A stretch of 64,000 nt of DNA, taken from NCBI RefSeq assembly GCF_988242995.1, contig NZ_OZ547043.1, one strand, 5' to 3'. The notes under the pieces were generated by a model. It made no database searches. It was not told the DNA's origin and was given only the letters and a program-made list of their open reading frames with translations. This document shows, in pieces, positions 123 through 53,276 of the stretch. The position numbers were made by a program, and so were the translations under genes. Every line of letters starts with the position of its first letter. The first letter of the stretch is position 1.

Positions 123-932
123 TTATTCCTCTGAATTATCGATTACACTGTATTCCCCGGTTAATACAGAGGAATCTGCAGGATCGATTGTCAGTGGTTC
201 CTTTTCATCCATTGATACTGCACGCTGGATCTCAATTGATACGGGCAGATATTTGAACAGGCGACGAATAGCCGTTTTCTTTGCCATTTCTTCCCAGTGA
301 GTTACCCACGGCCCGTTATTACCAGCTTTACTCAGGCTGCGCACCAGCTCAATCTGTTTGCGCGTCATAACTTCAAACTGAGTACCTCCGTCTTTCAGTC
401 TTGCGACAGCATAGACGTGGGTAACCGGGGCATCTTCGTTTTCTCCCGGGCGGTGTATTAACTTTTCATCAAGGCCAAATTCGAAGCTAAACTCGTCACC
501 TTCACGGACAACACGGGCTGACAGGCTGGCGATTTGACCAGAACGGCGAGCCAGATCAATCATGCCGCGATAGCCAATGATTAGCTGAACGTTCTTTTTA
601 CCGCTCTTTTCGTTTTTATTACCAAAAGGCAGTAAATATGCATGACCGAGGGCGCTACCTGGCTCAAGTCCGAGCTGTGAACACTGTACGATCGCACTGA
701 CAAAACTCATAGTGTCACAGTTTCCTAACGCCGGAACTTTACGAATTTCTGTAGTGGCGATACGGATCATACGTTCAGCCGTCATATGGCGTGGAAGAGC
801 TGCTGCCAGTTGCTCTTTCATTGATGGCTGGTTAATAAAGCTAATCACGTCGCTATTTTTAACTGCTGCTGGTGCACGGTTTCCCTGAGTTTTTTGCAGA
901 TCGGCTTTTGCGATTGGTGGTTGCTTAGTCAT
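123..932 (-). CDS. recT: RecT single-strand annealing recombinase (Rac prophage)
   Basis: ORF 123..989; product from internal Met [21 protein letters not shown]... is 269 aa and matches K-12 RecT from memory. Confidence 0.95.
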
Positions 933-3525
933 TTGCATATTCCTTAGCCCAGCGGGGCAGTGATAATGTCTTAATAGCTGGCCATTCATCGGTATTCAGG
1001 CAGTCAGACAGGGTTCGCAGATTGCGGTGATATTCCTGTTGACCTGCCAGTTTTGCTTCTTCGCCCATCATGAAAATTTCAACCGGATAACGTCCGCATT
1101 CAATAGTTGTGCTGGCAACCAGAAAAACGAAAGTTGGCTGCACTCCAAACTGTGCTTCATAACCGTCACTGTAGAATGCATCCTGAACGTGATAGCGGTA
1201 GTCGTAATAAGCGGTTTTGAATCGTTGAATATCCGCCGTAGTTTTCACGTCCATGATCCAGTGAAATTCAGGGATAATTTTGTCCGGACGGCACCGACAC
1301 AAAATTCCTGTTTCAGGATCTTCCCAGTAAATTGATGATTCAGCGTGTCCGGCGCTTTCAACAAGCCATTGCCCCAGCGGCAAAGCCATAACGCTTTGAT
1401 ACATGAGTTCAATTTTCCGGCCTTCTTCCGCAGTGATAACCGTTTTTCCTGTGCTTGCGCATTCCATCAGAAACGCTTTCTCTTCTTCTTTTCCGGCGTT
1501 TGTACGGCGGTTAAATTCAGGTGCTACGATAAAGCGGTTACTGAATTCTTCCGGTTCAAGTACCCGGCAGTGGAAAGCAGTTCCTAAATCGAGCGTTTTT
1601 GTCTTTGTGGTGTCCACGGGGGCATTTTTACGCCACAAATATAGTGCCGGAGTATCAGCAATGTCATCGAGCTGAGACTTACTGATACCGGGACCCGCGT
1701 GGTAATTCTCATTCGAAATTCCGTAATAAATACCTGGCTCTATGTCTTCTACGATTACGGGATCTGCGACTTCGCCAGTTTCATCACTGCAATCGTGATG
1801 CGGATCGCTGCCAGCATTCTCATTGTGCGGATGTTCAGCGCCTTCCATTTCCTCCGGATCATTTTCCTTAGCTTCAACCTGACTCTCTTCATCGAATGTT
1901 TCCTGGTATGTTGCGTCGCCCATCACCGCACCACAGTCAGGGCAGTTATCCCCGCCAGTCTGGCCGCAGGCATTGCAGGCTATTTCCGGTTCCTGTTGCA
2001 CTACTGGCTCAGGTTGATTCATATCTGGGCTGGTTTTTTCCGTTTCTGGCTGGTTCTGGTACACACAATCGCGAGTCTGGATCCCCTTTACCCATTTCGG
2101 ATCGTTCGGGTCGCTAATTCCGTCAACAAATTCACCACGTGATGCAGCAAGCAATTTATCGGCATCGACAGGATTTTTTGATGGAATGTTTTTCCGGGCT
2201 TCATGGAGTTCTGCCCACAGTTCCTGATATTTCGCATCAACAGAATTTACCTGTGACTGAGCATCCAGCGGCTGCGTGTCCTGATGATGTTCAGTTGCGT
2301 CCGGTTCCATTGTTTCAGCCTCTCCCTGTTCAACTGCCGTTGTTCCAGATGGTTGCGGTTTTTCTTCATCATCCTGTTTTCCTTCTTCTGTTACTCGCTG
2401 CGGCATCGGGGCAGAGGAGCGACCGCAGGCAATATCCACGATTTCCGGATCAGGGTTGGCATGATCGGTTTCAGTCAGTACTTTGTTCAGATATTCAGTG
2501 ACGTGCGCGGGGATGACCTCGATCCCAATTGGTGCTTCTTTTACGGACGCAACCACGATGGCGCGGGAATAATCCAGCCCGCCAGGCATGGTGATGAATT
2601 TGTCGCGGAAAACAGAAAAGGGCGGTTTATTTTCAGCGATAATTTCCTCAATGCGTTTAGCGTGTGCCGGATGAAGGTTATAGATGTCCAGATCCATTGA
2701 ACGGGCCAGTACGCCAGTGGCTACGTCGCGCGCCAGTGACGTCAGATCGTGTACGAAACCTTCGCCGCGATCGGTGAGGTTTCCGCCGCCAGCATTAGCA
2801 CCGGAAGCCGTGCGAGTGATGTGTGAAACACGATTACCCTTCATCCACTCTTTTGTCAGCAGTCCTCGATCGGTGTAGTCAGCGTTCAGGTATGCTTCGA
2901 AAAAAGCAGTTATCAGTCCCAGGTTTGAATTACCAGGATTAGGGAAAACTTTGTCAGTGTCACGAACCAGTTTGTGGAGTTCGCGAATTTCCAGCGGGTC
3001 GAGCAGGCTGGTTTTGTGGGAAACAGCCAGGGCAGTAACAGCCGGTAGTTCTTCAGCCCGAGCAATGTGTAATGCCTGGAGTCCGTCGCGTGAAACGTGC
3101 GTTACCGGTTTTTCGCTGCCGTGTTGAGCAAGCCAACGAATGGGCAGTTCCTGGCCAGAAATTGGGAGTAGCATATTCTCCTCAATCTCAGTCATGTCTT
3201 CGCCGTTGACGTTGGTATTGCCTTGATAGTGAGCGTTGTCTGGTGCTGCTCCCGGTTTTAGTTCCCATGTCATGGAGTCTTTGCTGAGTTGATAGCGTTC
3301 ACTCCAGGTAAAATCGATCTCACCTTCAGTGGGCAGGTCATTAACGACAGGAAAATTCGTGGCAACAGCTTTAAAATAGCTGCTCAGTTTTTTACCTGAC
3401 TTAACGATCAGGTAGTCCAGAGTGGCACAGGTCGATTCAAAATCGTTGCTTGCCCACAGGACGACGTCAGGTTCACCGGATGATTTTTTCGCTTTCCGTA
3501 ACAGGAAGAGTGGTTTTGTGCTCAT
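925..3525 (-). CDS. recE: Exodeoxyribonuclease VIII (RecE)
   Basis: 866-aa [23 protein letters not shown]...; length and sequence match K-12 RecE; overlaps recT start as in Rac. Confidence 0.95.
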
Positions 3526-3624
3526 TGTTTTTTAACCTCAACTCAGATTAAAATTCGTTTTGTTCAGTGAATGATCTTGCCGGATACACACTGTTCATAG
3601 CCTGCGCCATACGCAGGCTATTTC

Positions 3625-4337
3625 TTGTGCACAGAAAACCCCCAGCTAGGCTGGGGGTTCCGGAAAGCTTTCAGCTTTGAGCCAGTTATTAAAACCCCTT
3701 TTGATTTGTTAAAACACTTTGCGGTCTGGCAACTGCAAGTGTCAAACAAGAAATCAAAAGGGGGTCCCAATGGGGAACGAAAAGAGCTTAGCGCACACCC
3801 GATGGAACTGTAAATATCACATAGTTTTTGCGCCAAAATACCGAAGACAGGTGTTCTACAGAGAGAAGCGTAGAGCAATAGGCAGTATTTTGAGAAAGCT
3901 GTGTGAGTGGAAAAGCGTACGGATTCTGGAAGCTGAATGCTGTGCAGATTATATCCATATGCTTGTGGAGATCCCGCCCAAAATGAGCGTATCCGGCTTT
4001 ATGGGATATCTGAAAGGGAAAAGCAGTCTGATGCTTTACGAGCAGTTTGGTGATTTGAAATTCAAATACAGGAACAGGGAGTTCTGGTGCAGAGGGTACT
4101 ACGTCGATACAGTGGGTAAGAACACGGCGAAGATACAGGATTACATAAAGCACCAGCTTGAAGAGGATAAAATGGGAGAGCAGTTATCGATTCCCTATCC
4201 GGGCAGCCCGTTTACGGGCCGTAAGTAACGAAGTTGGATGCAAATGTCAGATCGTGTGCGCCTGTTAGGGCGCGGCTGGTAAGAGAGCCTTATAGGCGCA
4301 TTTGAAAAACCTCCGGCTATGCCGGAGGATATTTATT
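3625..4337 (+). mobile_element. IS200-family insertion sequence (IS200/IS605 family, tnpA only), copy 1
   Basis: About 713 bp identical to 16039..16751; left-end perfect palindrome cccccagctaggctggggg; single Y1 transposase ORF; 3' end hairpin cctccggctatgccggagg. Confidence 0.9.
3770..4228 (+). CDS. tnpA: IS200 transposase TnpA (HUH/Y1 type)
   Basis: MGNEKSLAHTRWNCKYHIVFAPKYRRQVFY...; classic IS200 TnpA sequence with H-x-H motif (YIHMLVEIPP); SD aagggggt upstream. Confidence 0.9.
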   Translation: MGNEKSLAHTRWNCKYHIVFAPKYRRQVFYREKRRAIGSILRKLCEWKSVRILEAECCADYIHMLVEIPPKMSVSGFMGYLKGKSSLMLYEQFGDLKFKYRNREFWCRGYYVDTVGKNTAKIQDYIKHQLEEDKMGEQLSIPYPGSPFTGRK

Positions 4338-4613
4338 TCAGATTTCACCTTTTAATTTCATTGCAATTAGAGTTGCCAGAAATTCGGCTTTTTTTTCTGC
4401 GGGCAGATTCTTTCCGATATGCACCAGGCACATTTTTTTGACACCTTCATCAAGTGTTTTTACGTTGCCTGATGGACCATCGATATCAACCACAGTGAAT
4501 GGGGTTTCTTTATTTTCTGTTTTAATTACGTAGCCAATGCGCTTTCCTTCCAGATTCACCTCGTGAACAATGTCATCGGTAGTTACAACAGTGGCTTCAT
4601 AATTGGTAATCAT
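4338..4613 (-). CDS. racC: Rac prophage protein RacC
   Basis: 91-aa product MITNYEATVVTTDDIVHEVNLEGKRIGYV... matches K-12 RacC from memory; stop codon abuts IS200 right end. Confidence 0.8.
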   Translation of the reverse strand: MITNYEATVVTTDDIVHEVNLEGKRIGYVIKTENKETPFTVVDIDGPSGNVKTLDEGVKKMCLVHIGKNLPAEKKAEFLATLIAMKLKGEI

Positions 4614-4687
4614 GTTTTTCTCCTTAATTAAGGTTGAGCGAATACCTGCCATTTCTGGCATAAATTTAGTTTCGAATAGTCAATTAA

Positions 4688-5520: not shown

Positions 5521-6009
5521 ATGTTGGATGTATTTACTCCATTGTTGAAACTTTTTGCTAACGAGCCACTCGAAAGACTTATGTATACGATTATCATTTT
5601 TGGTCTCACTCTCTGGCTGATACCGAAAGAGTTTACTGCCGCATTCAATGCTTATACTGAAATACCTTGGCTCTTTCAGATTATCGTTTTTGCCTTTTCT
5701 TTCGTGGTCGCCATTTCCTTCTCAAGATTGCGAGCACATATTCAAAAGCATTATTCATTACTACCAGAGCAACGAGTATTGCTTCGTTTATCTGAGAAAG
5801 AAATCGCTGTATTTAAAGATTTCCTTAAAACAGGAAATCTTATTATCACTTCTCCTTGCCGTAACCCGGTTATGAAAAAATTAGAACGGAAGGGCATCAT
5901 TCAACATCAGAGTGATAGCGCAAACTGTTCTTATTATCTCGTCACCGAAAAATACTCCCATTTTATGAAGTTATTCTGGAACAGCAGGAGTAGACGTTTT
6001 AATCGTTAG
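5521..6009 (+). CDS. sieB: Superinfection exclusion protein B
   Basis: 162-aa product from MLDVFTPLLKLFANEPLERLMYTIIIFGLTLWLIP... matches K-12 SieB; membrane segments visible. Confidence 0.9.
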   Translation: MLDVFTPLLKLFANEPLERLMYTIIIFGLTLWLIPKEFTAAFNAYTEIPWLFQIIVFAFSFVVAISFSRLRAHIQKHYSLLPEQRVLLRLSEKEIAVFKDFLKTGNLIITSPCRNPVMKKLERKGIIQHQSDSANCSYYLVTEKYSHFMKLFWNSRSRRFNR

Positions 6010-6161
6010 CTTACTGTGTGCTTCTCCAACCATCGGCGCGCACCAGTTTCGGTTTTAAATGTTTTGCTTTTGGTATACGTCATGGCAGTGAACGTTCCAT
6101 CCTGGTTGGGGAACACGCCGCACACCAGGGATTCGTTGTTGCCGAGGTCGATTTTTTGCAT
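6006..6161 (-). CDS. ydaF: Rac prophage small protein YdaF (51 aa)
   Basis: Hand translation MQKIDLGNNESLVCGVFPNQDGTFTAMTYTKSKTFKTETGARRWLEKHTVS; 3' end overlaps sieB stop. Confidence 0.7.
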   Translation of the reverse strand: MQKIDLGNNESLVCGVFPNQDGTFTAMTYTKSKTFKTETGARRWLEKHTVS

Positions 6162-6171
6162 TTTGCGAATC

Positions 6172-6306
6172 TCACATCTTGTTGCTACGTATAGCGACTT
6201 CTGCCTGCCAGAGATCCCAGTCGTTGCTGCGTAAAGCCTGCACAGCCTGGTTGTAAGTGATACCGCAACAATCCATCAAATACTGAACTACTTCGTAATG
6301 CACCAT
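6172..6306 (-). CDS. ydaG: Rac prophage small protein YdaG (44 aa)
   Basis: Hand translation MVHYEVVQYLMDCCGITYNQAVQALRSNDWDLWQAEVAIRSNKM. Confidence 0.65.
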   Translation of the reverse strand: MVHYEVVQYLMDCCGITYNQAVQALRSNDWDLWQAEVAIRSNKM

Positions 6307-6475
6307 CTTATCTCTCCCCTTAACGCCGGGTGGCGGAACTAACTGCTGCACTGCAAAATTTGAATCCCGCCGTCATGTTCATACGCCTCGGGCTGGCTAC
6401 TTAACCCCTTACCACTGCCTGGTAACTCGAAGTATTGCCCGGCGTTCTGTGGGGCGGGGTGGGTGGTATGCTGGA

Positions 6476-6517
6476 ACTATAGGTAATGCCTAATTGATTG
6501 TCAATAGGCTATGCCTA
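6476..6517 (-). promoter_or_regulatory. Leftward early promoter (PL-like) with repressor operator half-sites
   Basis: Minus strand -35 TTGACA (6504..6499), 17-bp spacer, -10 TATAGT (6481..6476); palindrome TAGGCtatGCCTA at 6505..6517 and GCCTAAT half-site in the spacer. Confidence 0.55.
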
Positions 6518-6614
6518 ATGTTTTGAGCGTAACCTAATAGGTGATGGCGACAGCAGAAAGTGATGGGGGGGTTAAATAACGGAATCCAGGAGTTTTCCGT
6601 CAGACCATATAAGT

Positions 6615-7091
6615 TTAAGTTCCAGTTTTTGTGATGTTCTGGCTTTTCCGTTCAGATTCTAGAGCTTTCAGATACTTACCCACTTTCATTTCCATCGCTG
6701 CTATATAGGCGCGAACATCGTGGTCAACCCAATCTGGTTCTGTAGCATTTCCAGATAACAGGAAAGCTACAATCGCTCTTATTTCATCAGAGGCTGCTTG
6801 ATAAAGGTTGTTTATATCTAAAAGTTCACTTTTTGTATCTGAATTGGTGGGGGTTGGTATGGGGTATTCGTTAAGCCCCCAATGCTCTGGACCAACAACA
6901 TCAGAAAAGAAACGCCATAATTCTGGAAGTTTATCTTTACTTATAGAGCCTTTCTTAATCCAGTCATAAATTGATGGTGGTTGGACTTTGAAGTGGCGTG
7001 CGACCTCCGCCTTTGATTTGACGGATCCCGATGCGATTTTTTTGTTAATGGCCTGCTCTATCGCTCGGCCTAAGTCTTTACCACTAAGCAT
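6615..7091 (-). CDS. racR: Rac prophage repressor RacR
   Basis: 158-aa ORF MLSGKDLGRAIEQAINKKIASGS...; matches K-12 RacR; divergent from ydaS. Confidence 0.9.
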   Translation of the reverse strand: MLSGKDLGRAIEQAINKKIASGSVKSKAEVARHFKVQPPSIYDWIKKGSISKDKLPELWRFFSDVVGPEHWGLNEYPIPTPTNSDTKSELLDINNLYQAASDEIRAIVAFLLSGNATEPDWVDHDVRAYIAAMEMKVGKYLKALESERKSQNITKTGT

Positions 7092-7144
7092 TGCTTAATA
7101 TTCTCCTATGCGCATTACATTAGGCAATCCCTACCCTTACCGCA

Positions 7145-7188
7145 TTAGGCACAGCCTATTGACAATTGCGTTAGGCGTCGCCTAATAT
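7145..7188 (+). promoter_or_regulatory. Rightward early promoter (PR-like) with two operator palindromes
   Basis: Palindromes TTAGGCacaGCCTA (7145..7158) and TTAGGCgtcGCCTAA (7171..7185); -35 TTGACA 7159..7164 and -10 TAATAT 7183..7188 about 27 bp upstream of ydaS. Confidence 0.55.
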
Positions 7189-7214
7189 TTCTGTGTGTTT
7201 TTGGAGTTCATTCG

Positions 7215-7511
7215 ATGAAAAAAGAGAACTATTCATTCAAGCAAGCTTGTGCTGTTGTCGGTGGGCAATCAGCAATGGCTAGGCTTTTAGGTGTATCACC
7301 TCCAAGCGTAAATCAATGGATCAAAGGGGTACGTCAATTGCCTGCCGAGAGATGTCCAGCAATTGAACGTGCAACAAGAGGTGAGGTTCTGTGCGAAGAA
7401 CTTCGTCCTGATATTGACTGGTCATATTTACGACGTTCGGCATGTTGTTCGCAGAATATGTCAGTGAAGCAACTAAATGACAGTAACAAATCCTCATTTG
7501 ATCATACCTGA
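7215..7511 (+). CDS. ydaS: Cro-like HTH regulator YdaS
   Basis: 98-aa ORF MKKENYSFKQACAVVGGQSAMARLLGVSPPSVNQWIKG...; HTH motif; matches K-12 YdaS. Confidence 0.9.
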   Translation: MKKENYSFKQACAVVGGQSAMARLLGVSPPSVNQWIKGVRQLPAERCPAIERATRGEVLCEELRPDIDWSYLRRSACCSQNMSVKQLNDSNKSSFDHT

Positions 7512-7533
7512 AACATCAAGAGGCAAATGATTC

Positions 7534-7956
7534 ATGAAAATCAAGCATGAGCACATCGAATCAGTGTTGTTTGCCCTAGCAGCCGAAAAAGGGCAGGCAT
7601 GGGTAGCCAATGCAATTACTGAAGAATATCTGCGCCAGGGGGGCGGCGAATTGCCCCTGGTTCCAGGCAAGGACTGGAACAATCAGCAGAATATCTATCA
7701 CCGTTGGTTGAAAGGTGAAACGAAAACGCAAAGAGAAAAAATTCAGAAGCTGATCCCAGCAATTCTGGCAATCCTTCCGCGCGAGCTGCGTCACCGACTC
7801 TGCATCTTCGATACCCTGGAACGCCGTGCATTACTGGCGGCGCAGGAAGCGTTAAGTACGGCAATTGATGCGCATGATGATGCAGTCCAAGCCGTTTACC
7901 GGAAAGCGCATTTCAGCGGCGGCGGTTCTTCCGACGATTCTGTCATTGTTCATTAA
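7534..7956 (+). CDS. ydaT: Rac prophage protein YdaT
   Basis: 140-aa ORF matching K-12 YdaT from memory. Confidence 0.85.
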   Translation: MKIKHEHIESVLFALAAEKGQAWVANAITEEYLRQGGGELPLVPGKDWNNQQNIYHRWLKGETKTQREKIQKLIPAILAILPRELRHRLCIFDTLERRALLAAQEALSTAIDAHDDAVQAVYRKAHFSGGGSSDDSVIVH

Positions 7957-11907: not shown

Positions 11908-13737
11908 CTACCTAATGATACCACGGTCAAGAGCCTGAGTAATTATTTTTCTTATTTTTATAAATTCAGGCAATTCATTTTTAAGTCTTGCGGTCATCAT
12001 TTGTTGGAGGCAAAAAATTTCCTCTGCATTTACTTCTTCTTTATCATACAGGTGTTGCGCTAATAATCTTATTTGATTCTTATACAGTTCTGGATCATTA
12101 GAACTCCAGGTCTGTGAATCAATTATTTCTTTTTCACTTGGCGTAATTGCCTTTTCAATGAGTAATTGTTCGGGAGTATCAAATGGTAAATACTTCACTT
12201 TATTGAATGCATACTCAAGCACTTGCCTTTTGAGTCTATTAGATTCTTGTTCATTTTTTTTGCCATTACTACCACTGGCATTGATAATTAACTCGCAACC
12301 ATAATATTTGCACATTGTATTAACTAAATCAGCATCAGCAATTTCACTAATTCTTACTGGTTTTATTTTTTTGTTTTTATCACCATCAAGTAAAAACAAA
12401 ATATCATTGCGTTCTACCACAGCGTAACTGGGAAGATGCTTGCTTAAAATGGTCTCCGAACCACCTGGTATATAACTTACACTAAATGATAAGCTTAATC
12501 TTTCATCATTTTTAATCGCTTTATCTATAATTGCTTTAGCTAATTTATCTTCTACAATTATTGTTTTCTTGTTAATATCATGCCCTAGCTCTATAAAAGC
12601 TTCATCCGGTGCTATATTTTGAACTATTTTAGCTGTTTCACTCTCTTCATCAAAAACAAATAATTTAATGGCATCTTTGGGAAGAGTGTTCACAATAACA
12701 GGAGAATGGGTTGATATTACCACTTGATGTTTTTTCTGCTCAACAATAGAGTACAGAACATCCATCATCCTTTTTTGTGCACCAGGGTGAAGTGAAACTT
12801 CTGGTTCGTCAAGAAGAATTAATGAATTAGGTTTGGCCGAATAAATATTGAGTATTAGTGAAACTATTGCAAATTCACCACTTCCAGCAAACGCTTCTGT
12901 ATAGTTCAACTTATCAGTTGAAAGTAAAGCGGTTCCTCCTCTGGTTCCAAATAACCGATGCTCAAGAAATTTAATGACTTTATATTTTTTCCCTAATATA
13001 AATGAGACGTGCTCAACTAGTTCTGGCGCCAAGGTTATATTTTTAACAATGGTTTCCGCCCCCCAGAGTCTTAAATTACTTAGCTTTTCATCAAAAGCTT
13101 TCTTTATATATTTAGATTTGCTTCTGATATAGTCTTGCTTTGTAATTAATACACCACTCTTCTTCTTTCTTAATTTAAAATCAGAGTGATACATACATCT
13201 ATCAAATGCACTTATTTCCGATCTGAAATCTAGGAAAACCAATCCCTTCTTGATTTTTTTCCATCTGGTTGCATTACTATTAGCACCCAGATCATCCGAA
13301 ATACTCTCCATGTTATCACCAACAGATGGTCGACTTGTTTCCCAATAATCGATTGTTTTCTTGGTAGCATTGATACGTGCTTGGAGTATTTCAACTAAAC
13401 GGCCATCAGCATTTTTATATCCATATATATATCTAGGTTTAAGAGAACTGCCATCAGCAAGTTTTAGGTCAGGAAACTCATCTGTTTCAGTTGTGAACCA
13501 ATAACGAGTTATATTTTTACCATGTGGGCAACCAAATAGCGCTTTGATAACAGAACTTTTATTAGTTCCATTTTTTCCTACTAAAGCCGTTATAGGGAAC
13601 TGAAAATCGATCCTTGCATTCTGCTCTATATTTTTAAAGTATGGAAAACGGATATGTTGTATGAATGGTTCAAATTCACCGTTTTTTAACGCGCACTGGA
13701 GTGTTCGAATTTTGCTCTTGTATGCGGAAGTGCTCAT
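11908..13737 (-). CDS. OLD-family-like nuclease: N-terminal ABC-type ATPase plus C-terminal Toprim-like domain (609 aa)
   Basis: Walker A LVGKNGTNKSS; signature-like AGSGEFAIVSL; Walker B/D-loop LILLDEPEVSLHP; H-loop VISTHSP; C-terminal Toprim-like E (TIIVEDKLAK) and DxD (LFLLDGDKN); stop lies 23 bp from MTase ATG; visibly AT-rich. Confidence 0.7.
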   Translation of the reverse strand: MSTSAYKSKIRTLQCALKNGEFEPFIQHIRFPYFKNIEQNARIDFQFPITALVGKNGTNKSSVIKALFGCPHGKNITRYWFTTETDEFPDLKLADGSSLKPRYIYGYKNADGRLVEILQARINATKKTIDYWETSRPSVGDNMESISDDLGANSNATRWKKIKKGLVFLDFRSEISAFDRCMYHSDFKLRKKKSGVLITKQDYIRSKSKYIKKAFDEKLSNLRLWGAETIVKNITLAPELVEHVSFILGKKYKVIKFLEHRLFGTRGGTALLSTDKLNYTEAFAGSGEFAIVSLILNIYSAKPNSLILLDEPEVSLHPGAQKRMMDVLYSIVEQKKHQVVISTHSPVIVNTLPKDAIKLFVFDEESETAKIVQNIAPDEAFIELGHDINKKTIIVEDKLAKAIIDKAIKNDERLSLSFSVSYIPGGSETILSKHLPSYAVVERNDILFLLDGDKNKKIKPVRISEIADADLVNTMCKYYGCELIINASGSNGKKNEQESNRLKRQVLEYAFNKVKYLPFDTPEQLLIEKAITPSEKEIIDSQTWSSNDPELYKNQIRLLAQHLYDKEEVNAEEIFCLQQMMTARLKNELPEFIKIRKIITQALDRGIIR

Positions 13738-15932: not shown

Positions 15933-16038
15933 TTTTTTACGCATAAACTGCTTCAATTCCGGTATGCTTCGCAAAGCTGTATCGCGAGGCGAACCAAGCG
16001 CATGAACTTTACCAGAACCCGCCATTGAGCGGGTTTTG

Positions 16039-16751
16039 TTGTGCACAGAAAACCCCCAGCTAGGCTGGGGGTTCCGGAAAGCTTTCAGCTTTGAGCCAGT
16101 TATTAAAACCCCTTTTGATTTGTTAAAACACTTTGCGGTCTGGCAACTGCAAGTGTCAAACAAGAAATCAAAAGGGGGTCCCAATGGGGAACGAAAAGAG
16201 CTTAGCGCACACCCGATGGAACTGTAAATATCACATAGTTTTTGCGCCAAAATACCGAAGACAGGTGTTCTACAGAGAGAAGCGTAGAGCAATAGGCAGT
16301 ATTTTGAGAAAGCTGTGTGAGTGGAAAAGCGTACGGATTCTGGAAGCTGAATGCTGTGCAGATTATATCCATATGCTTGTGGAGATCCCGCCCAAAATGA
16401 GCGTATCCGGCTTTATGGGATATCTGAAAGGGAAAAGCAGTCTGATGCTTTACGAGCAGTTTGGTGATTTGAAATTCAAATACAGGAACAGGGAGTTCTG
16501 GTGCAGAGGGTACTACGTCGATACAGTGGGTAAGAACACGGCGAAGATACAGGATTACATAAAGCACCAGCTTGAAGAGGATAAAATGGGAGAGCAGTTA
16601 TCGATTCCCTATCCGGGCAGCCCGTTTACGGGCCGTAAGTAACGAAGTTGGATGCAAATGTCAGATCGTGTGCGCCTGTTAGGGCGCGGCTGGTAAGAGA
16701 GCCTTATAGGCGCATTTGAAAAACCTCCGGCTATGCCGGAGGATATTTATT
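16039..16751 (+). mobile_element. IS200-family insertion sequence, copy 2 (identical to copy 1)
   Basis: Identical to 3625..4337 (offset 12414 bp), same orientation; inserted between Q-like gene and lysis region. Confidence 0.9.
16184..16642 (+). CDS. tnpA: IS200 transposase TnpA
   Basis: Identical to the 3770..4228 product. Confidence 0.9.
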   Translation: MGNEKSLAHTRWNCKYHIVFAPKYRRQVFYREKRRAIGSILRKLCEWKSVRILEAECCADYIHMLVEIPPKMSVSGFMGYLKGKSSLMLYEQFGDLKFKYRNREFWCRGYYVDTVGKNTAKIQDYIKHQLEEDKMGEQLSIPYPGSPFTGRK

Positions 16752-52910: not shown

Positions 52911-53138
52911 TGAATAAATCCTTTAGTTATTTTATTTGCCTTTTCATCCCCATTTTGGGGAGTGAAAGCATCCTAAAGGAGAAGTTCAGTTAGCCGATAA
53001 ATATCATTTGTTACGCCTTAAGTAAAACCTTAATCAAATAATTCTTCTGAAATGATAATAAGTCTGGTGAATGTATTGAAGATAATACATACAAAATAAA
53101 AATTATACTTTTAATTTGCTATACGTTATTCTGCGCGG

Positions 53139-53248
53139 GTTATATGCCTTTATTGTCACAGATTTTATTTTCTGTTGGGCCATTGCGTTGCTACTGATTT
53201 TCCAACAAATAATGAGACAAGCCCGAACAGTCGTTCGGGCTTTTTTTT
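53139..53248 (+). ncRNA. micC: MicC small regulatory RNA
   Basis: GTTATATGCCTTTATTGTCACAGATTTTATTTTCTGTTGGGCCATTG... ending in hairpin gcccgaacagtcgttcgggc plus T-run; matches K-12 micC from memory; between ompN and ydbK. Confidence 0.8.
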
Positions 53249-53276
53249 AGAATTGGATAATCCTTATCCAGTGCAT

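Follow-up and report, generated by a model that had tools for sequence, protein, structure and literature searches.

A predicted leftward promoter and operator pair downstream of racR as the probable left half of the Rac prophage immunity switch

Introduction

Among the cryptic prophages of E. coli K-12, Rac has been widely studied; it is the source of RecET recombineering, of the division inhibitor KilR and of the essential repressor RacR. In phage lambda, the genes for CI and Cro are divergent and near-palindromic operators of 17 bp, with 23–24 bp from one to the next, lie over the promoters that flank the repressor gene. Prophage CP-933P of E. coli O157:H7 (PaaR2/YdaS/YdaT; promoters PR933P, PRM933P and PL933P) shares with Rac the gene order, homologous YdaS and YdaT proteins and an octameric repressor (PMC8630535). 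Its leftward promoter PL933P, whose operators resemble the right-hand ones, is active, and either PaaR2 or YdaS represses it about 100-fold (PMC8630535). CP-933P differs from Rac in its immunity specificity, with repeats of the GTTTAGT type, and in a toxin–antitoxin pair that separates its repressor gene from PL. The DicA/DicC switch of Qin (promoters dicCp and dicBp) resembles that of Rac in its short, non-cleavable repressor and in the operators reported on both sides of the repressor gene, one set of them at the promoter of a division-inhibitor operon (PMC10448788). Operator sequence and repressor specificity are different in Qin, where derepression by an antirepressor has been documented (PMC10448788). 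Lemire et al. grouped RacR and DicA with the Gifsy-type short repressors GfoR, GfhR and GtgR, for which inactivation by antirepressors, and not by RecA-stimulated cleavage, is assumed; Gifsy recE-lacZ fusions respond to the Gifsy induction pathway (PMC3121763).

For Rac itself, the racR–ydaS intergenic region has been studied in detail. Krishnamurthi et al. (2017) described three variant GCCTAA/TTAGGC repeats within its 123 bp, and found three EMSA complexes of RacR with this DNA as well as ChIP enrichment (PMC5700373). Wisniewska et al. (2022) determined the DNase I footprint of RacR, the half-site ATTAGGC and the consensus T/ATAGGC-n3-GCCTAT/A, and named the operators O1 (at the ydaST promoter) to O3 (over the racR ATG); the O1 region was protected at the lowest RacR concentration (PMC9638921). 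The same work mapped a single start site for PydaS, abolished this promoter by changing TAATAT to CCCGGG, and reported that the racR mRNA is leaderless and that YdaS represses its own promoter and not racR (PMC9638921). RacR represses PydaS in vitro (PMC5700373, PMC9638921), and in vivo PydaS shows hardly any activity even when RacR is absent (PMC9638921, PMC11879457). By size-exclusion chromatography RacR is an octamer, which was assigned by the same group to the four inverted repeats of the intergenic region (PMC11014345). The sites of YdaT have been mapped as well (PMC11879457). Counted from the racR start, all published in vitro substrates cover −186 to +85, and the authors of PMC9638921 themselves suspected that a DNA element was missing from their templates.

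Here we analyse a second operator cluster, on the other side of racR, and compare it with related loci. In the literature on Rac, RacR and KilR, including papers of 2024–2026 that mention RacR and part of the older literature, we found no promoter or operators downstream of racR. A search for genome-wide RacR binding data (ChIP-exo, DAP-seq or SELEX) returned nothing relevant, and one on sbcA mutations yielded no molecular detail. The left half of the Rac switch is probably unreported, yet it is what the family would predict.

Results

The racR region and its genes

All positions refer to the window, the whole stretch of 64 kb that was analysed. Its segment 6000–7600 matches a RefSeq E. coli chromosome, in which ydaF, ydaG, racR, ydaS and ydaT of the Rac prophage are annotated, at 100% identity; identity with the K-12 derivative C600 is 99.8%. 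The names racR, ydaS, ydaT, ydaG, ydaF, sieB, kilR, racC and recE were taken from the 100% identical record. C600 differs from the window at four positions (6660, 6705, 6990 and 7141), and all operators and promoter hexamers are unchanged, so that the K-12 literature is directly applicable here. The features are listed in Table 1.

The divergent genes racR and ydaS are separated by a gap of 123 bp, an arrangement typical of lambdoid switches. A Pfam scan of RacR returned only a weak HTH_17 match, under the curated cut-off, and no Peptidase_S24 domain; a self-cleaving repressor of the LexA/CI type, which would carry this domain at its C-terminus with an Ala-Gly cleavage site, was rejected on this ground. 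A short protein with an N-terminal helix-turn-helix and without a cleavage domain, RacR falls among the repressors of the Gifsy/DicA type (about 130–160 aa). To the left, ydaF and kilR are separated by sieB on the other strand, and transcripts from a leftward promoter must therefore cross sieB antisense. An IS200-family element is located between racC and recE in the window, and a second copy lies 12.4 kb away.

Table 1. Genes, operators and promoter elements around racR (window coordinates; mismatches are counted against TTAGGC-N3-GCCTAA)
Feature	Position	Strand	Sequence	Remarks
ydaF	6006-6161	-		DUF1391; second gene of the predicted PL operon
ydaG	6172-6306	-		First gene of the predicted PL operon
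Conserved PL leader, untranslated	6306-6470	-		Ends at the ydaG start codon; heteroimmune homology begins at its 5′ end
PL −10	6476-6481	-	TATAGT	Predicted promoter; promoter scan
OL1, left proximal	6479-6493		TTAGGCATTACCTAT (minus-strand reading)	2 mismatches
PL −35	6499-6504	-	TTGACA	Predicted promoter; promoter scan
OL2, left distal	6504-6518		TTAGGCATAGCCTAT (minus-strand reading)	1 mismatch
Candidate weak third left site	6523-6537			3 mismatches; overlaps conserved block 6532-6545
racR	6615-7091	-		158-aa repressor; N-terminal helix-turn-helix, no S24 self-cleavage domain
Lone half-site, right side	7068-7073			Hexamer search
Operator across racR start codon (ATG)	7084-7098		CTAAGCATTGCTTAA	3 mismatches; published O3, covers leaderless PracR3 promoter region (PMC9638921)
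OR3, right operator nearest racR	7120-7134		TTAGGCAATCCCTAC	2 mismatches; inside published RacR footprint (PMC9638921)
OR2	7145-7159		TTAGGCACAGCCTAT	1 mismatch (PMC9638921)
PydaS (PR analogue) −35	7159-7164	+	TTGACA	Promoter scan; start site mapped in PMC9638921
OR1	7171-7185		TTAGGCGTCGCCTAA	Perfect palindrome, 0 mismatches; published O1 (PMC9638921)
PydaS −10	7183-7188	+	TAATAT	Promoter scan; mutation data in PMC9638921
ydaS	7215-7511	+		Cro-like helix-turn-helix protein; Pfam YdaS_toxin, P22_Cro, HTH_3
ydaT	7534-7956	+		CII analogue (PMC11879457)

Operator-type palindromes on both sides of racR

The whole 64 kb was searched for TTAGGC-N3-GCCTAA with up to two mismatches, and the expectation was taken from shuffled sequence. 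Seven sites were found compared with 2.0 expected. Five of the seven flank racR within the 851 bp from 6400 to 7250, which make up 1.3% of the window, in agreement with the first-pass annotation, which had placed such palindromes on both sides of the gene. All three sites with at most one mismatch fall into this interval, as do 7 of the 14 exact TTAGGC hexamers of the window. The two remaining sites, at 12827 and 41000, correspond in number to the chance expectation and were dismissed. When three mismatches were allowed, the sites at 6523–6537, 7059–7073 and 7084–7098 joined the list.

The right cluster (7120–7185 plus 7084–7098), together with its TTGACA/TAATAT hexamers, is the published RacR operator region with PydaS (PMC5700373, PMC9638921). 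Both right-hand palindromes named at first, 7145–7158 and 7171–7185, are present, the former with its end at 7159; the sites at 7120–7134 and 7084–7098 and the half-site next to them had been overlooked. The TTAGGC-N3-GCCTAA motif, offered earlier as a testable operator consensus for RacR and YdaS, had already been published for RacR (PMC9638921). Neither the right half nor the operator consensus is new. Repeated operators within the intergenic region overlap both PR and the repressor's own promoter, as in lambdoid switches; the overlap is read from the sequence and binding of the repressor is known from the literature (PMC5700373, PMC9638921).

On the left, a palindrome plus a half-site at 6488–6517 had been proposed. 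Instead, we found two full sites (OL1 and OL2). Start-to-start spacing is 25 bp in this pair and 25 and 26 bp on the right. A block conserved among relatives, 6532–6545, consists of two abutting half-sites, ACCTAA/TAGGT, and overlaps the candidate weak third site.

One promoter–operator design in mirror image

A promoter scan of 6000–7600 returned only two strong matches, PL on the minus strand and PydaS on the plus strand. The hexamers of PydaS are separated by 18 bp and are interleaved with the right palindromes as first described. Those of the predicted PL, likewise noted before as overlapping the left sites, have a 17-bp spacer and agree with the consensus at 11 of 12 positions. The geometry of the two is a mirror image: PydaS with OR2 and OR1 faces rightward, PL with OL2 and OL1 leftward.

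Each cassette has the form TTAGGC-N3-GCCTAT joined directly to TGACA-N5/6-TTAGGC-N3-NCCTA(A/T), which runs directly into the −10. The first T of the −35 is the final T of the distal operator (7159 in OR2, 6504 in OL2), the proximal operator occupies the −35/−10 spacer, and the first three bases of the −10 are the final three of the proximal operator (7183–7185, TAA of TAATAT; 6481–6479, TAT of TATAGT). Hence the CCTAT end common to all distal sites, their single 'mismatch', in which the final T doubles as the first T of the −35, and hence also the lower symmetry of OL1 compared with OR1, its last three bases being shared with the −10. The segments 6497–6531 and 7132–7166 form a 35-nt inverted repeat with 83% complementarity, from which we conclude that the two cassettes are copies of each other. 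The same design was present at both promoters in 13 of 13 diverged loci compared, with the overlap of hexamers and operators kept in each.

The left pair is maintained in RacR-family loci

In all 84 Rac-type loci, with a RacR homologue 92–100% identical, two sites 25 bp apart were located about 95 bp past the racR stop codon. The comparison was extended to 121 distinct RacR-family loci (766 kb), a set that includes further relatives from a second scan, such as short one-domain versions. An operator pair exactly 25 bp apart was present 0.1–2.6 kb downstream of the repressor gene in 114 of them; among the seven exceptions are five truncated contigs, and the last two have a single degenerate site each. 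The further relatives from the second scan have the right cluster and one 25-bp pair, which lies 113 bp to 2.6 kb past the gene. Stray sites across the 121 loci numbered about 13, compared with about 24 expected at the shuffle rate. Homologues differ in the distance between the two clusters, which ranges from 0.65 to about 3.2 kb, so that any OL–OR loop would not be length-specific.

A more distant example is Klebsiella phage KpF5, whose repressor is 56% identical to RacR (59 of 75 N-terminal residues identical) and whose Cro-like protein is 55% identical to YdaS. Three right sites are located at −67, −42 and −7 from the repressor gene, as in Rac. Within 5.5 kb the only further sites are two with a spacing of 25 bp, which lie 1.4 kb downstream, on the far side of a DUF450 gene and a strong intrinsic terminator. 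This pair sits in TTGACA-17-TAATAT, in the same orientation as the repressor gene.

Selection on single positions was assessed by a phylogenetic footprint of 56 distinct Rac-type sequences, which are related to each other, so that p-values are indicative only. Half-site columns were variable in 7 of 60 cases with a mean minor-allele fraction of 0.007, compared with 56 of 122 and 0.056–0.070 for the other intergenic and N3 spacer columns (Fisher p = 2.6e-6, indicative for these related sequences). For the left side alone, 3 of 24 half-site columns and 20 of 43 others were variable (p = 0.007, with the same reservation). The constraint on half-sites equals that on the first and second codon positions of racR (0.008). 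The PL −10 TATAGT is invariant or nearly so in the 56 distinct RacR loci.

From these comparisons, the left cluster is very probably the OL/PL of Rac, a RacR-repressed leftward promoter within a two-sided immunity switch. By sequence, conservation and position, it corresponds to the second operator cluster that lambdoid phages carry on the leftward promoter beyond the repressor gene.

A mosaic boundary and a conserved leader downstream of the predicted PL

Two heteroimmune Rac-like prophages, with other repressor and cro genes, align with the window across the leader as far as about 6466–6470 and are fully divergent beyond. At the point of divergence each carries a palindrome pair of its own, 25 bp apart, and in the O145 prophage the motif TACCCATGGGTA recurs at its right operator. 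A scan with the leader core found 110 copies. At least a dozen unrelated cassettes stand upstream of them, and almost every one has a TTGAC-like −35 flanked by repeated motifs. One CP-933P-like type comes after a RelB/ParE toxin–antitoxin pair, as in the CP-933P locus, and lies upstream of this leader just where the Rac cassette does. Phage Tritos has this leader upstream of dicF and dicB, a further link to Qin.

The PL leader was found in about 70% of complete E. coli genomes and contains invariant sequence blocks. No known Rfam family was detected in 6150–7250, and a search of the whole window at the gathering threshold returned only STnc490 (twice) and MicC. The single-sequence fold of the leader RNA was unremarkable (z = −1.9), and the consensus fold, from 5 and then 87 distinct sequences, was weak with zero compensatory pairs; for these reasons no structured leader RNA is claimed. 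The leader has a short open reading frame, beginning at 6376, whose ribosome-binding site and start, GAGG-N9-ATG (MTA...), are conserved. Its length varies from 6 to more than 32 codons, which makes a conserved leader peptide unlikely.

Discussion

A probable two-sided switch built from one cassette

A lambda-like layout with OL/PL and OR/PR, as suggested in the first-pass annotation, is the best reading of the locus: its right half is backed by published experiments, its left half by conservation, the phylogenetic footprint and the mosaic boundary. The immunity switch would then consist of two copies of one promoter–operator cassette facing opposite ways. RacR dimers are expected to use the N-terminal helix-turn-helix domain for binding to the 15-bp palindromes, probably cooperatively in pairs 25–26 bp apart. 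A dimer at the proximal site would cover the spacer and the −10 and a dimer at the distal site would abut the −35, so that RNA polymerase is blocked at both promoters. On the right, silencing of ydaS–ydaT by RacR has been established experimentally in the literature, and through the sites at 7120–7134 and 7084–7098 RacR can hold back its own promoters too. On the left, we infer that RacR silences the strong PL in the same manner as PydaS. OL1, with its two mismatches, may bind RacR weakly. Transcripts from PL would start near 6469, about 146 nt past the racR stop codon, and run through the conserved 160-nt leader into ydaG, ydaF, kilR, ydaE and racC and, in other strains, also into recET. A drop in RacR would cause both promoters to fire. 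Of the operon proposed at the outset (ydaG-ydaF-kilR-racC-recET), ydaG and ydaF do lie downstream of PL; in this window transcription might not reach recET, the IS200-family element lying between.

The Rac switch works like that of lambda; those of CP-933P and Qin are its siblings. It shares with lambda the divergent repressor and cro-like genes, the near-palindromic operators over promoters on both sides of the repressor gene and a spacing of neighbouring operators of about 2.4 helical turns (25 bp in Rac). A leaderless repressor mRNA and an octameric repressor are further common features (PMC9638921, PMC11014345). On the other hand, RacR (158 aa) has an unrelated C-terminal domain and lacks S24 self-cleavage, and the Rac operators measure 15 bp (6-3-6) instead of 17. 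The left cluster has two clear sites and not three, and the clusters are 0.65 kb apart compared with 2.4 kb. Unlike Cro of lambda, YdaS is reported not to repress the repressor gene (PMC9638921). Rac has no N gene or nut site and carries another conserved leader after PL.

A possible role of PL in the silencing of kilR

When racR expression drops, ydaF, ydaG, ydaE and racC are upregulated about 40-fold and kilR, ydaC and ralA more than 70-fold (PMC6765115). A RacR-controlled PL fits this derepression of 40- to 70-fold and would supply the promoter for the genes from ydaG through racC. PL, and not read-through from racR alone, is the likely source of kilR and other early-left transcripts. A viable deletion from sieB to ydaU retains kilR (PMC5700373). 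This is compatible with the PL model because the deletion takes out PL as well. Silencing of kilR has been ascribed to Rho-dependent termination of racR read-through and not to a repressed PL (PMC4150792). Both can coexist, control of PL being a second layer of kilR silencing.

Such read-through offers another role for the left sites, which we consider unlikely: RacR might bind them chiefly as a roadblock to transcripts running from racR into the kilR operon, or as a loop anchor, with little transcription contributed by the TTGACA/TATAGT pair. The stretch from the racR stop codon to the left sites yielded no convincing intrinsic terminator, the left palindromes themselves being flagged as terminator-like only on the wrong strand, and Rho termination of racR transcripts is reported to be necessary for keeping kilR silent (PMC4150792); the octameric state of RacR in solution (PMC11014345) would suit an anchor. 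However, conservation of the hexamers equals that of the half-sites, their overlap with the operators is kept in the 13 diverged loci, and the heteroimmune cassettes have a −35/−10 pair at exactly the same spot. The homologous PL933P is active and repressible (PMC8630535), and in KpF5 the strong terminator just ahead of the left operators would make a roadblock redundant.

There is even less reason to assume that the left promoter is real and mainly under the control of YdaS, or of host factors and Rho, with RacR absent from the left sites in vivo. PL933P is indeed repressed by YdaS as well as by the repressor (PMC8630535), OL1 is off consensus at two positions, and the near-silence of PydaS without RacR suggests that other factors act in the region (PMC9638921, PMC11879457). 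Yet the left half-sites agree with ATTAGGC, the half-site known from the RacR footprint, they are constant where the N-terminal domain of RacR is conserved and are replaced along with the repressor, and the early-left genes are derepressed when racR expression drops (PMC6765115). A chance origin of the left cluster, or its survival as a functionless remnant after inverted duplication of the right operators, has hardly any probability: the 35-nt inverted repeat does speak for a common origin of the two cassettes, yet only about 0.002 sites are expected in a 75-bp stretch (an estimate from the shuffle rate), the pair is kept at exactly 25 bp, at variable distances and across repressors only 56% identical, and purifying selection acts on the half-sites and not on spacers and linkers.

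With the left cluster as a RacR-repressed PL, a more far-reaching model can be put forward, tentatively and as one that we would not favour at present. The RacR octamer might bridge the OR1–OR2 and OL1–OL2 pairs, looping out the 0.65-kb racR region, rather than occupy the four intergenic repeats, and PL might outweigh Rho-controlled read-through as the main source of kilR and early-left transcripts. If such bridging takes place, repression of PydaS, repression of PL and autoregulation of RacR would be coupled, as in lambda. It would also explain why in vitro and plasmid assays that do not include the left cluster disagree with the behaviour in vivo. The biochemical substrates (roughly window 7006–7277) end inside racR and so omit the left operator pair, which is a candidate for the element suspected to be missing.

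Meaning for Rac and related prophages

The composite cassette has one operator that shares a base with the −35 and another that shares three with the −10; this arrangement recurs at both promoters and across at least a dozen immunity types, which have one conserved leader in common. It is a tidy case of modular exchange among phages and not a new principle. For Rac, the left half is only mildly surprising; it is useful for understanding how Rac, KilR and RecET are regulated.

Conserved leader of the predicted PL operon

The segment between the predicted start of PL, the leftward early promoter downstream of racR, and its first gene, ydaG, is conserved. This leader was matched in approximately 3800 of 5426 complete E. 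coli genomes and occurs in 87 distinct versions, which are 55–99% identical to that of the window. The phages Evi and Tritos and an Actinobacillus phage likewise carry it. The immunity cassettes, i.e. exchangeable repressor/operator modules, that adjoin its 5′ end are of at least twelve unrelated kinds. The leader contains invariant sequence blocks; it matched no Rfam family and compensatory base pairs were not found in it. Its 5′ end is C-rich and G-poor and, judged by this composition, could be a candidate loading site for Rho.

A short ORF lies inside the leader and reads MTAGFKFCSAAVSSATRR (18 codons) in the window. Among its homologues the start is nearly invariant and the length varies, with 6 codons in the shortest and over 32 in the longest; in some of them the frame continues into the DUF1391 gene downstream. 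Possibly it is a translated upstream ORF, the peptide sequence of which is unimportant.

Features of the Rac immunity region, of KpF5 and of the IS200-family element (window coordinates, except for KpF5)
Feature	Coordinates	Strand	Remarks
PL leader, between predicted PL start and ydaG	6306-6470	minus	conserved, ~160 nt
Short ORF in PL leader	6320-6376	minus	conserved GAGG-N9-ATG start
Conserved block ACCTAATAGGTGAT	6532-6545		two abutting half-sites (operator arms), tail-to-tail; region 6523-6545
Cargo interval, KpF5 (L003)	2977-4373		between repressor gene and left operators; likewise in L119 and L128
IS200-family element, copy 1	3621-4337	plus (Y1 transposase ORF)	Rfam STnc490 match
IS200-family element, copy 2	16035-16751	plus (Y1 transposase ORF)	Rfam STnc490 match

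Genes of the predicted PL operon

YdaG (6172-6306, minus strand; 44 amino acids) matched the UBA-like Pfam domain UBA_4 above the curated cut-off (E = 3e-5). The two IS200-family copies (717 bp) are 99.9% identical. Copy 1 sits between recE (925-3525) and racC (4338-4661), so that the predicted PL operon is interrupted in the window; strain FORC 064 lacks the element at this site. A MicC small RNA gene at 53136-53256 (Rfam, 124 bits) indicates that the window reaches past the prophage into the host chromosome.

Interval from the repressor gene to the left operators

The conserved block begins 14 bp past OL2, the second predicted left operator of RacR. Variation is seen at positions 6523-6528, which would form the left arm of a third left operator. 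A site with two mismatches occurs in the region 6523-6545 of some Rac-type loci, at a spacing of 19–20 bp and not 25. In the stretch from the stop codon of racR to OL (6535-6620, minus strand) no convincing intrinsic terminator was found, the best hairpin reaching −11.6 kcal/mol (z = −0.9). This is consistent with published reports that Rho is required to halt read-through from racR (PMC4150792).

In phages of the type of Klebsiella phage KpF5, whose repressor is 56% identical to RacR, cargo genes, e.g. for a DUF450 protein, separate the repressor gene from the left operators and are followed by a strong intrinsic terminator. The equivalent position in lambda is occupied by rexAB. Owing to such cargo, the distance between OL and the operators on the other side of the repressor gene (OR) varies within one repressor family, from 0.65 to approximately 3.2 kb.
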